Positions 2,186 through 3,472 of a DNA stretch of 26,889 nt are shown here, in pieces. This DNA comes from a virus (taxonomy: Duplodnaviria; Heunggongvirae; Uroviricota; Caudoviricetes). The stretch's first letter is position 1. Each line of letters begins with the position of its first letter. The DNA lies in the IMG/VR virus record IMGVR_UViG_2537562020_000004; one strand, 5' to 3'. The translations under genes were made by a program, and so were the position numbers. The notes beneath the pieces were generated by a model. The model saw only the letters and a list, made by a program, of their open reading frames with translations, was not told the DNA's origin and did not search any database.

Positions 2186-2546
2186 CAATAAAACCACATA
2201 AAAAACATATAATTATAATAAAAACAATTAGTTAATTTAATTTTTAATGCAGTGAATTGCAATATTCTGCAACCTCCGCCGCCACTTTGCCGCCACTTAA
2301 AGCTTTATACCACACAGACTTTAGTATACCCGAGTGAAACGCTAACACATGAGGTAGTTGGAAAATTTCCGTATATGTTGTAATATTGATACGCATTATA
2401 TGATTTTTACCTGATATAATGTAATTATTAGCTTCAAAATTATTTTTGCACGAATCAGGTATTACCAAGTAGTTGTCAGTTTTTAAAAACCCAACATCCT
2501 AAAATTAGCATTGTTTTTTAACCACAAAACATCCACGGAGAAGAAC

Positions 2547-3356
2547 GTGTCAAAAAAGGATACAATCCAGATTATCGATATCAGGATGCAGAGACCAATC
2601 ATAGCAAGAATAGAAGAAGAAAATTTAAATTTGACATTGCAAATGTCAGATAAAGCCACATTATCTGGTGCGACAGTTAGTTTTTTCACCCCAAATAACG
2701 TTTCTATATTCTTATCCTCAGCAAAAAAAGAGCTCTCAAAATCCAATTCTATATATAAAAGTCTTTTTGGAAAAATACACAAAACCAAACATAAAAACTT
2801 TAAAATTTCCGACAAAGACCTGCCGAGACTCTATAATTACTTTGAATCAATTCAGACGGCCATTATTTCTATGTATACTGCAATTGAGTCTTTTGCAAAT
2901 ATATGCATACCACATGATTATGTTTATGAAAAAAACAATGCCAAGGGAATCAAAGAATCCTATAGCAAAGAGCTAATTGAGCGATATATACCAACAAGTG
3001 AAAAAATAGATAAAATCCTACCGTCTATTTTAAATTGTGATTCGCCTAAAGGTTCAAAACTATGGCAAGATTTTAAAAGCCTTGAGTCACTTAGAAATGA
3101 CATAATTCACCCCAAGACAACAAAGAAAAACACAGAAACAAAAGAAGACTCATCTTTTTTATGCATTTTACTATCAGATGACTTTATAAAAAAAGTTTCC
3201 TGTGGATTTGATTTGGTATCTTATTTTTGCAAACAAGACACTACTCATAGTCTTTTCCCAATGGGTTTCGGTGAAATTGAACTTAAACCTGTCCCAATTA
3301 AAGCCGGTGACTTTGAAAAAGTTGATGATCATGATGAAATAGAATTACCATCATAA
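2547..3356 (+). CDS. Cargo protein with a HEPN-like RNxxxH motif (putative RNase / abortive-infection type); start uncertain
   Basis: The open frame from 2511 (TTG) is 281 aa. GTG 2547 is preferred because GGAG lies 6 nt upstream. ATG 2586 is also possible. R195-N-D-I-I-H200 (nt 3093-3110) lies in a helical C-terminal half (ESIQTAIISMYTAIESFAN ... LESLRNDIIHPK). The gene is very AT-rich. Confidence 0.7.
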   Translation: MSKKDTIQIIDIRMQRPIIARIEEENLNLTLQMSDKATLSGATVSFFTPNNVSIFLSSAKKELSKSNSIYKSLFGKIHKTKHKNFKISDKDLPRLYNYFESIQTAIISMYTAIESFANICIPHDYVYEKNNAKGIKESYSKELIERYIPTSEKIDKILPSILNCDSPKGSKLWQDFKSLESLRNDIIHPKTTKKNTETKEDSSFLCILLSDDFIKKVSCGFDLVSYFCKQDTTHSLFPMGFGEIELKPVPIKAGDFEKVDDHDEIELPS

Positions 3357-3357
3357 C

Positions 3358-3404
3358 AAAAAAACACAAACCATAAAGACGGCCATAGGTGGTCTTTATG
3401 GTTT
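3358..3404. terminator. Hairpin terminator between the convergent cargo gene and int (good T-tract for the int strand)
   Basis: 13-bp perfect stem AAACCATAAAGAC / GTCTTTATGGTTT (3368-3380 / 3392-3404) with an 11-nt loop. The minus strand continues GTGTTTTTTTG. Confidence 0.65.
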
Positions 3405-3472
3405 ACAATAGACGCAGCCGTTATTAAATTTAAATCCAACAGCGTTAAAATAAACTAACAATATACGCATAA

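Follow-up and report, generated by a model that had tools for sequence, protein, structure and literature searches.

A HEPN-like cargo gene between attL and the integrase gene of a 186/PSP3-like prophage of Escherichia coli

The prophage, its integration site and the attL–int interval

The DNA considered here, IMG/VR record IMGVR_UViG_2537562020_000004, is a stretch of 26,889 nt that we call the window, and all positions are given in the numbering of the whole stretch. It is a 100% match to the chromosome of E. coli strain E1535, spanning dgcN–yfiB and then most of a ∼33 kb P2-type prophage (186/PSP3-like) with genes for a 186-type CI repressor, CII and Fil, replication gene A, and the P2 portal, terminase, capsid and tail genes. 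Our subject is the AT-rich segment that lies between the left end of this prophage and its integrase gene, int. Judged from its sequence, this segment is cargo of the prophage, which sits at the 3′ end of rplS; it is a cassette with a single real gene (2547–3356), encoding a HEPN-like protein of 269 aa.

The match between the window and the bacterial chromosome ends at 2184, both in K-12 and in ∼5400 other E. coli genomes. The preliminary description of this DNA had placed the chromosomal junction at 2185/2186; the junction is real, and the difference of one base is immaterial. Comparing the empty site of K-12 (...TTAGTTAAGACGCTCTTTGAT...) with the right end of the lysogen (...TCAGTTAAGACGCTCTTTGAT...) identifies the attL core as AGTTAAGACGCTC, at 2172–2184. 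The core consists of the last codons of chromosomal rplS, including its stop codon, and is present in the empty site, in the window and at the right prophage end, where it lies outside the window (locus L002, ∼33224–33236). A search for a second copy within the window found the single copy only. From the junction to int, whose stop codon occupies 3473–3475, there are 1288 bp, in agreement with the 1.29 kb of AT-rich DNA noted earlier, and the G+C content of this core–int interval is 0.31–0.36, against 0.45–0.53 on both flanks.

The origin of the interval becomes apparent when it is aligned with three cargo-less relatives at the same rplS site, namely phage vB_EcoM-613R3 and the prophages of E. 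coli SF-468 and E. coli 97.3, in which int is 84–85% identical to that of the window and ends ∼90 bp from the core. Homology to these relatives runs through the chromosome, the core and ∼115 bp of the P′ arm of attP, stops at ∼2295–2300, and resumes at ∼3493–3506, within the coding end of int. The P′ arm of the window (2185–2300) is 87% identical to the attL–int interval of 613R3 and carries two direct GCCGCCACTT(T) repeats at 2278–2298; there are three GCCGCCACTT repeats in a related Klebsiella prophage. Three copies of TGCCGCCA are found in the P arm at attR, and both sets of repeats are probably arm-type Int sites.

Because the alignment with the cargo-less relatives breaks at ∼2300 and ∼3493, we conclude from the sequence that a cassette of ∼1.19 kb was inserted at the very 3′ end of int, where it now separates the arm sites from the rest of the gene. 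As delimited in this way, the cassette extends from ∼2301 to ∼3492 on the plus strand (boundaries ±10 bp), has a G+C content of 0.31–0.33, and is flanked on either side by homology to those relatives. The insertion has rewritten the end of the integrase. The window int (3473–4513, minus strand) encodes 346 aa with Int_N and Phage_integrase domains, and its last ∼8 codons (3473–3496) are derived from the cassette, so that the protein ends in ...NPLTLCNGFKWKD, as compared with ...NPLSLCDNFKLNND for the Klebsiella counterpart and ...NPLSLYVGDNMAAEVA for 613R3, in which the final codons of int run over the arm repeats. The ancestral protein has thus had its last 11 residues, YVGDNMAAEVA, exchanged for eight new ones, CNGFKWKD, while the old codons remain as a relic over the arm-type repeats: at 2265–2294 on the minus strand we find the codons G-G-K-V-A-A-E-V-A followed by a mutated stop, on the same DNA over which the Int of 613R3 comes to its end.

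The Klebsiella prophage, which has ∼77% DNA identity across the region, shows the same junctions, a similar new Int tail and the same architecture. The shared junctions and tail point to a single, old insertion, which viable phages have retained ever since. The order of the elements (core, P′ arm, cassette, int) also means that the cassette moves with the phage. This outcome agrees with one of two origins proposed in the preliminary description, that of phage cargo between attP and int. The comparison it had suggested, with the attP–int region of related phages and with the right prophage end, was informative on both counts, the cargo-less relatives delimiting a clean insertion and the core recurring at the right end with the P′ arm still adjoining the core at the left.

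The interval also varies in its content among related phages. Of 5426 complete E. coli genomes, 18 carry the cassette (≥99.7% identity), always adjoining this int. In 54 of the 73 E. coli genomes of this int lineage the int is only 80–90% identical, and all three such relatives that were examined lack the cassette. One of these three, the prophage of E. coli SA53-3 at the same rplS site, has a different cargo between attL and int, consisting of two genes for proteins of 256 aa and 156 aa (locus L020, 1211–2444, minus strand). Neither protein has a match in Pfam or PADLOC, and this is a second, unannotated kind of cargo at the same spot. Given that the interval is empty in some relatives, holds the HEPN-like gene in others and different cargo in another, it behaves as a variable cargo spot. 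We therefore have an accessory gene between att and int, inside the element and variable among related phages, as in the P2-like att–int cargo or defence hotspot (PMC13586616), which is reported to be a minor one, with ∼3% of the defence systems of P2-like phages (PMC13586616).

Within the cassette, a perfect 13-bp inverted repeat at 3368–3404 lies between the convergent cargo gene and int and is a probable terminator; in the Klebsiella prophage a different hairpin occupies this position. Upstream of the gene, the sequence at 2412–2420 (plus strand) reads TGaTATAAT, a candidate extended −10 element without a good −35. The match to TGnTATAAT makes it a possible promoter element, and it is partly kept in Klebsiella (TGATAAGAT); a consensus promoter scan, which requires a −35, did not report it. 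The only other candidate gene in the cassette region, a divergent ORF (open reading frame) of 74 aa at 2244–2468 on the minus strand, had been listed with some doubt in the preliminary description as a possible partner, and the doubt was justified. The ORF is present, but what it encodes at its C-terminus (GGKVAAEVA) is left over from the former end of int. As its counterpart is broken into fragments in Klebsiella and it has no family matches, we do not regard it as a gene, and reject it as a partner.

Several features elsewhere in the prophage and its surroundings were recorded in the course of this work. At attR, outside the window (L002, 33076–33236), the phage supplies a new stop codon for rplS, TGA replacing TAA, together with a new terminator hairpin. 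The CI repressor (286 aa, 4883–5743, minus strand) has two tandem Phage_CI_repr helix-turn-helix domains in addition to its CI C-terminal domain, and between CI and int lies a DUF2511/YebY-family gene (4536–4946) that is found there in all relatives. In the main P2 defence hotspot, which extends from replication gene A to portal gene Q, there are a gene for a 334-aa hypothetical protein (11859–12863, minus strand) and several small ORFs (10757–11828), none with a PADLOC match. A 291-aa protein annotated as pentapeptide-repeat-containing (21816–22691, minus strand), likewise without a PADLOC match, is encoded in reverse among the tail and baseplate genes. The tail/baseplate region is the other known accessory spot of P2. 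On the chromosomal side, the window begins within a copy of IS1B inserted in yfiR (window 1–380; L001, 926–1781), leaving upstream of dgcN/yfiN only a yfiR pseudogene fragment, so that the diguanylate cyclase of E1535 is without its periplasmic repressor YfiR.

The cargo gene and its family

The cargo gene (2547–3356, plus strand) starts with GTG, has a GGAG at 2537–2540, and is annotated in RefSeq as a 'hypothetical protein' (WP_001394629.1). The ORF could also be read from 2511, hence the range of 269–281 aa given originally; the GTG at 2547 is the start used by RefSeq and by all homologues of 269–270 aa. At 3093–3110 the gene encodes R183-N-D-I-I-H188, the putative HEPN catalytic motif, whose key residues correspond to the R195 and H200 of the preliminary description in 281-aa numbering. 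Such a motif alone is not evidence, since a six-frame translation of the window contains R[NHQ]xxxH 29 times; it is conservation that counts.

We therefore aligned 121 diverse members of the family, with 20–46% identity. R183 is present in all 121 and H188 in 119, so that the pair on which the HEPN proposal had been staked is conserved among the homologues. The residue after R183 is N in 89 members, D in 20 and H in 11. The family thus has an R-x4-H motif, of the Rx4–6H type, with a polar residue following the arginine, and HEPN active sites have been described as having N, D or H at this place (PMC3710099). Other positions are conserved to a similar degree: N118 is invariant, and E114 (120 of 121), K153 (120), R13 (118) and K190 (116) are nearly so.

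An AlphaFold model made with the family alignment has a mean predicted local distance difference test score (pLDDT) of 92.6 and a predicted template modelling score (pTM) of 0.89. It shows an N-terminal four-stranded beta unit at ∼13–48 (short strands at 18–47), followed by a helical core at ∼51–228 that forms an all-alpha, up-down bundle of the HEPN kind. The core begins with two long helices, at 51–80 and at 92–119, of which the second carries E100, E114 and N118; a beta-hairpin (127–139) and helices at 141–147 and 150–162 follow. The next helix, 171–187, ends at R183-N184, with H188 just beyond, and two further helices and a conserved C-terminal tail complete the protein.

Profile searches with the 121 members point in the same direction. 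In Pfam there were matches to DUF3644 (10 members), HEPN_Cthe2314 (10), RiboL-PSP (8) and Apea (2), and in PADLOC to RTasHEPN (23) and to three CARF_HEPN models (5, 3 and 1), all of them below the curated cut-offs. DUF3644 and Cthe_2314 are HEPN families (PMC3710099). HEPN families were the only ones matched by more than one member, and no non-HEPN family recurs; as sequence evidence this support is weak but one-sided. The Pfam comparison with HEPN families proposed at the outset has accordingly given a divided answer, in that the weak matches of family members converge on HEPN while the window protein itself has nothing above a cut-off. Among the abortive-infection HEPN profiles (AbiV, AbiD/F Abi_2, AbiU2 and AbiJ), the window protein matched none and a single one of the 121 members matched HEPN_AbiV (E = 0.0056). 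The ApeA/HEPN_Apea (Gao_Ape) profiles likewise gave no match to the window protein, and the two member matches to HEPN_Apea were at E = 0.02 or worse. In PHROGs the only match was to the unannotated family phrog_17113, and profile searches against the sequences of the PDB returned nothing. Taken together, the model, the conserved motif and the direction of the profile matches make a HEPN fold with a catalytic-type motif very probable.

The family is large. An exhaustive profile search returned 1070 cluster representatives with E ≤ 1e-3, of which 149 had E ≤ 1e-30 (clusters counted at 50% identity, so that the family has at least 1070), from Pseudomonadota and Bacteroidota. They fall into short forms of ∼240–300 aa and long forms of ∼390–487 aa that carry an unannotated N-terminal extension. 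In loci of Flavobacteriaceae (L059 to L071), ∼480-aa long forms stand in conserved synteny, with a 95-aa gene directly upstream in nine loci, which could reflect vertical synteny or a lineage-specific partner. A tblastn search of 50,697 GenBank phage genomes with the short form and with a long form found no copy.

Among the bacteria with close homologues of the window protein, at 73–88% identity, are Klebsiella, Serratia and Morganella. Against the copies in three other elements, pairwise ratios of non-synonymous to synonymous substitution (dN/dS) are 0.03–0.08, with synonymous sites near saturation, which indicates strong purifying selection on the cargo gene. The Serratia and Morganella copies resemble it in DNA over 2524/2537–3356 only, which is to say the ribosome-binding site and the ORF, and so what the elements share is essentially the bare gene.

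These elements are of several kinds. A P4-like satellite in Serratia has an 84%-identical copy located between its delta (Ogr_Delta) gene and int, and the P4 int–psu/delta/sid interval is a documented defence hotspot (PMC9122126; PMC13586616). Two lambdoid prophages, one of them in Providencia, carry 58%-identical copies between the antiterminator gene Q and the lysis genes. The Q–lysis interval is a classical moron site of lambdoid phages. The Morganella copy is in an island with an integrase fragment and a RelA_SpoT-like gene pair, and that of Simplicispira in an integrase/IS110 island. The Morganella pair, encoding a 118-aa protein and a RelA_SpoT-domain protein of 259 aa, begins ∼650 bp downstream of the homologue (L009/L010, 7468–8605) and is possibly a toxic small alarmone synthetase module.

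Beyond these, we looked at the two neighbours on each side of 36 non-redundant loci of distant homologues, and found AbiEi/AbiEii (2), PDC-S19 (2), Avs2, Drt4, HerA, a BsuBI/PstI restriction–modification pair, HipA (3) and UmuC-type genes. Such defence-type neighbours are suggestive of a defence role. The statement that the gene has no obvious partner has held up in every homologue context we examined: no partner is conserved in any of them, no conserved neighbour was found across 64 further loci beyond local synteny groups, and a search of the cassette for an RNA antitoxin, by Rfam scan and tandem-repeat search, gave no Rfam match and no repeat array.

A proposed stand-alone ribonuclease and the alternatives to it

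As the same gene is found in cargo or anti-phage hotspot positions of other elements, we regard it as a good candidate for a putative single-gene defence system. The explanation that we favour, with moderate confidence, is that the gene encodes a stand-alone, self-regulated HEPN ribonuclease (RNase) acting as an abortive-infection or defence moron. The protein would dimerise, two R...H motifs together forming a metal-independent RNase site. The N-terminal beta unit (with the conserved D11 and R13), the P49-N50 junction or the C-terminal tail might keep this site closed or the protein monomeric, until a cue from infection by another phage switched the protein on. Cleavage of tRNA, mRNA or rRNA would then arrest translation and abort the infection by the competing phage. 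The RNase activity, the self-regulation and the defence role are each what we infer by analogy with better-known HEPN proteins.

There are several points that weigh against this explanation. The window protein has no match in Pfam or NCBIfam and passes no curated cut-off there; its best PADLOC match, to RTasHEPN (E = 1.2e-4), and that to CARF_HEPN, which covers residues 102–198, are both sub-threshold, and Foldseek against the PDB gave nothing better than E = 0.12. An RNase that is constitutively active and has no partner would be toxic to the cell, and the self-inhibition that would prevent this is assumed. The enrichment of defence genes among the neighbours is modest and comes from a plain tally, and searching papers and their supplements for the accession and for the motif peptide yielded nothing, nor any experiment on the protein or its family. 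Furthermore, the Q–lysis position of lambdoid phages also hosts morons that are not concerned with defence.

In the strongest of the alternatives, the protein is likewise a HEPN RNase, but one working for the programme of the phage itself, by processing or degrading host or phage transcripts in lytic growth, by counter-defence, or in the conflict between P2 helper and P4 satellite. The lambdoid copies lie downstream of antiterminator Q, where late expression is possible, and in the circular form of the window phage the cargo gene would lie downstream of the late genes D–ogr, across attP. The presence of the gene in both a P2-type phage and a P4-type satellite would also suit a part in their conflict. 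However, it is absent from most relatives of the phage, including all three of those examined with int 80–90% identical, and must therefore be dispensable for the phage life cycle. It has an upstream region and a hairpin of its own, and shares only its ORF with copies in other elements, as morons typically do. Copies are known from islands and chromosomes that are not of phage origin as well, and tblastn found none in the 50,697 phage genomes searched. We consider this alternative unlikely.

The second alternative is that the protein is the toxin of an addiction or toxin–antitoxin (TA) module that stabilises the prophage, with a small RNA or peptide encoded in the cassette as antitoxin. There is room for one, in that ∼245 bp of untranslated DNA lie upstream of the gene, and antisense ORFs exist. 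Against this, the homology between the copies in different elements is limited to the ribosome-binding site and the ORF (2524/2537–3356), so that no flanking antitoxin travels with the gene, though an antisense RNA within the ORF may exist; upstream of the gene, the E. coli and Klebsiella sequences differ by indels. The gene has neither an MNT gene nor any conserved neighbour beside it, the cassette shows no Rfam match and no ToxI-like repeats, and the motif RNDIIHPK lacks the tyrosine of the HepT type. Thus we find a TA module improbable.

A third view denies that the protein is a nuclease at all, and takes RNxxxH to be a structural or ligand-binding feature, such as non-catalytic HEPN proteins or nucleotide-binding relatives have, or the resemblance to HEPN to be convergent. 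The frequency with which the motif arises by chance in this window speaks for such a view, as do the failure of Foldseek to find a relative in the PDB, the position of every profile match below its curated threshold, and the non-significant hhalign comparison with SPbeta YopA described below. It does not readily accommodate an arginine and a histidine that are near-invariant in a family diverged to 20–30% identity, the presence of N, D or H after the arginine that is typical of HEPN (PMC3710099), or weak matches that converge solely on HEPN models, and we judge it very improbable.

Finally, the other origin proposed in the preliminary description, a remnant of a second integrative element that had inserted in tandem at the same att site and then decayed, is hardly credible and we reject it: a G+C content sharply unlike that of phage and chromosome, and the occurrence of the same gene in a P4-like satellite elsewhere, would fit, but the window has a single core copy with the phage P′ arm between it and the segment, the segment interrupts the int coding end and has rewritten its last codons, the junctions and new Int tail are kept in the Klebsiella phage at ∼77% DNA identity, and no remains of integrase, replication or regulatory genes are present in the segment.

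If the protein is the active defence RNase that we favour, it would represent a compact, partner-less HEPN system of 269 aa that is widespread and has been missed by annotation, PADLOC, Pfam and NCBIfam having nothing usable for it, and whose ORF occurs alike in a helper-type phage, in a satellite and in lambdoid phages. Without a defence role, it would remain a HEPN protein that is conserved, mobile and probably (by prediction) catalytic. A wider proposal, which we put forward tentatively and which may well not hold in full, is that this gene is the founding member, and an experimentally tractable one, of a large family of HEPN immune RNases that act alone and have so far gone unrecognised (1070 clusters or more at 50% identity, with short forms and YopA-like long forms), that its N-terminal beta unit or C-terminal tail is a new infection sensor, and that it moves as a bare ORF between P2-like, P4-like and lambdoid cargo spots. 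The advance is incremental, HEPN effectors in prophage hotspots being a well-known theme. As for the locus, it is a clean and datable example of how the minor att–int hotspot of P2-like phages is filled, with the last codons of int rewritten and the phage not destroyed.

Comparison with known systems

Of the known relatives, the HEPN superfamily RNases (PMC3710099), here the poorly characterised families Cthe_2314, DUF3644/EC042_2821 and RiboL-PSP, resemble the cargo protein in the invariant R-[N/D/H]-x3-H and in the weak profile matches that each draws from up to 10 family members. No member of our family reaches the curated threshold of any of the three. The cargo protein differs from them also in having its own N-terminal beta unit, a core beta-hairpin at 127–139 and a conserved C-terminal FP.GFG tail, and in the invariant residues peculiar to its family (D11, R13, P49, N50, E114, N118 and K153).

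In general organisation, the closest parallels are ApeA (Gao_Ape), DARNA/PD-T7-3 and DS-11 (CBS-HEPN), which are likewise single genes without an antitoxin, carried on mobile elements and combining a HEPN effector with a non-catalytic part. In these systems (ApeA and DARNA being described in preprints) tRNA is cut after an infection cue has been sensed. The window protein matches none of the PADLOC models for Gao_Ape and PD-T7, and in contrast to DARNA it has 269 aa rather than 456 aa, with different sensor parts and architecture.

The best structural matches of the cargo protein are HepT toxins, of the HepT–MntA type VII TA systems (PDB 5yep, 7ae2 and 8xdj); as given above, the E values from Foldseek went no lower than 0.12. 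The cargo gene, however, has no adjacent MNT nucleotidyltransferase gene in any context, its motif is RNDIIHPK and not Rx4HxY, and its product is twice the size of HepT, with extra domains.

A further candidate relative was YopA of SPbeta. Precomputed matches to Pfam PF27216 (YopA_C), classed as 'weak', exist for several close homologues of the cargo protein, and YopA (438 aa) contains ALETLA...RNKIVHP with a spacing equal to that of AIESFAN...RNDIIHP in our family, many of whose members are long forms of 390–487 aa and thus similar to YopA in length. We dropped a direct link to YopA itself, as an hhalign comparison of the family profile with YopA gave E = 0.065, which is not significant; a search of the literature on YopA found no characterisation. 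In SPbeta, yopA (L086, 19674–20990) stands among individually terminated accessory genes, close to the RES-domain gene yopC and the SieB-like yopH.

Lastly, the cassette resembles the P2 and P4 hotspot systems (PMC9122126; PMC13586616) in its att–int site, in having a close copy in the P4 hotspot, and in a content that varies between related phages. Neither paper, as far as its text and supplements show, names or tests the cargo gene, and the 'Putative HEPN' of Rousset et al. (pFR103), which we considered as a possible identity for the cargo protein, is an unrelated, longer protein. Given that the profile tests failed for the single-protein and Abi HEPN systems, that there is no MNT gene or HxY motif, and that the gene was not found in the hotspot papers, we take this to be a HEPN family, as yet uncharacterised, at a locus of a familiar type.

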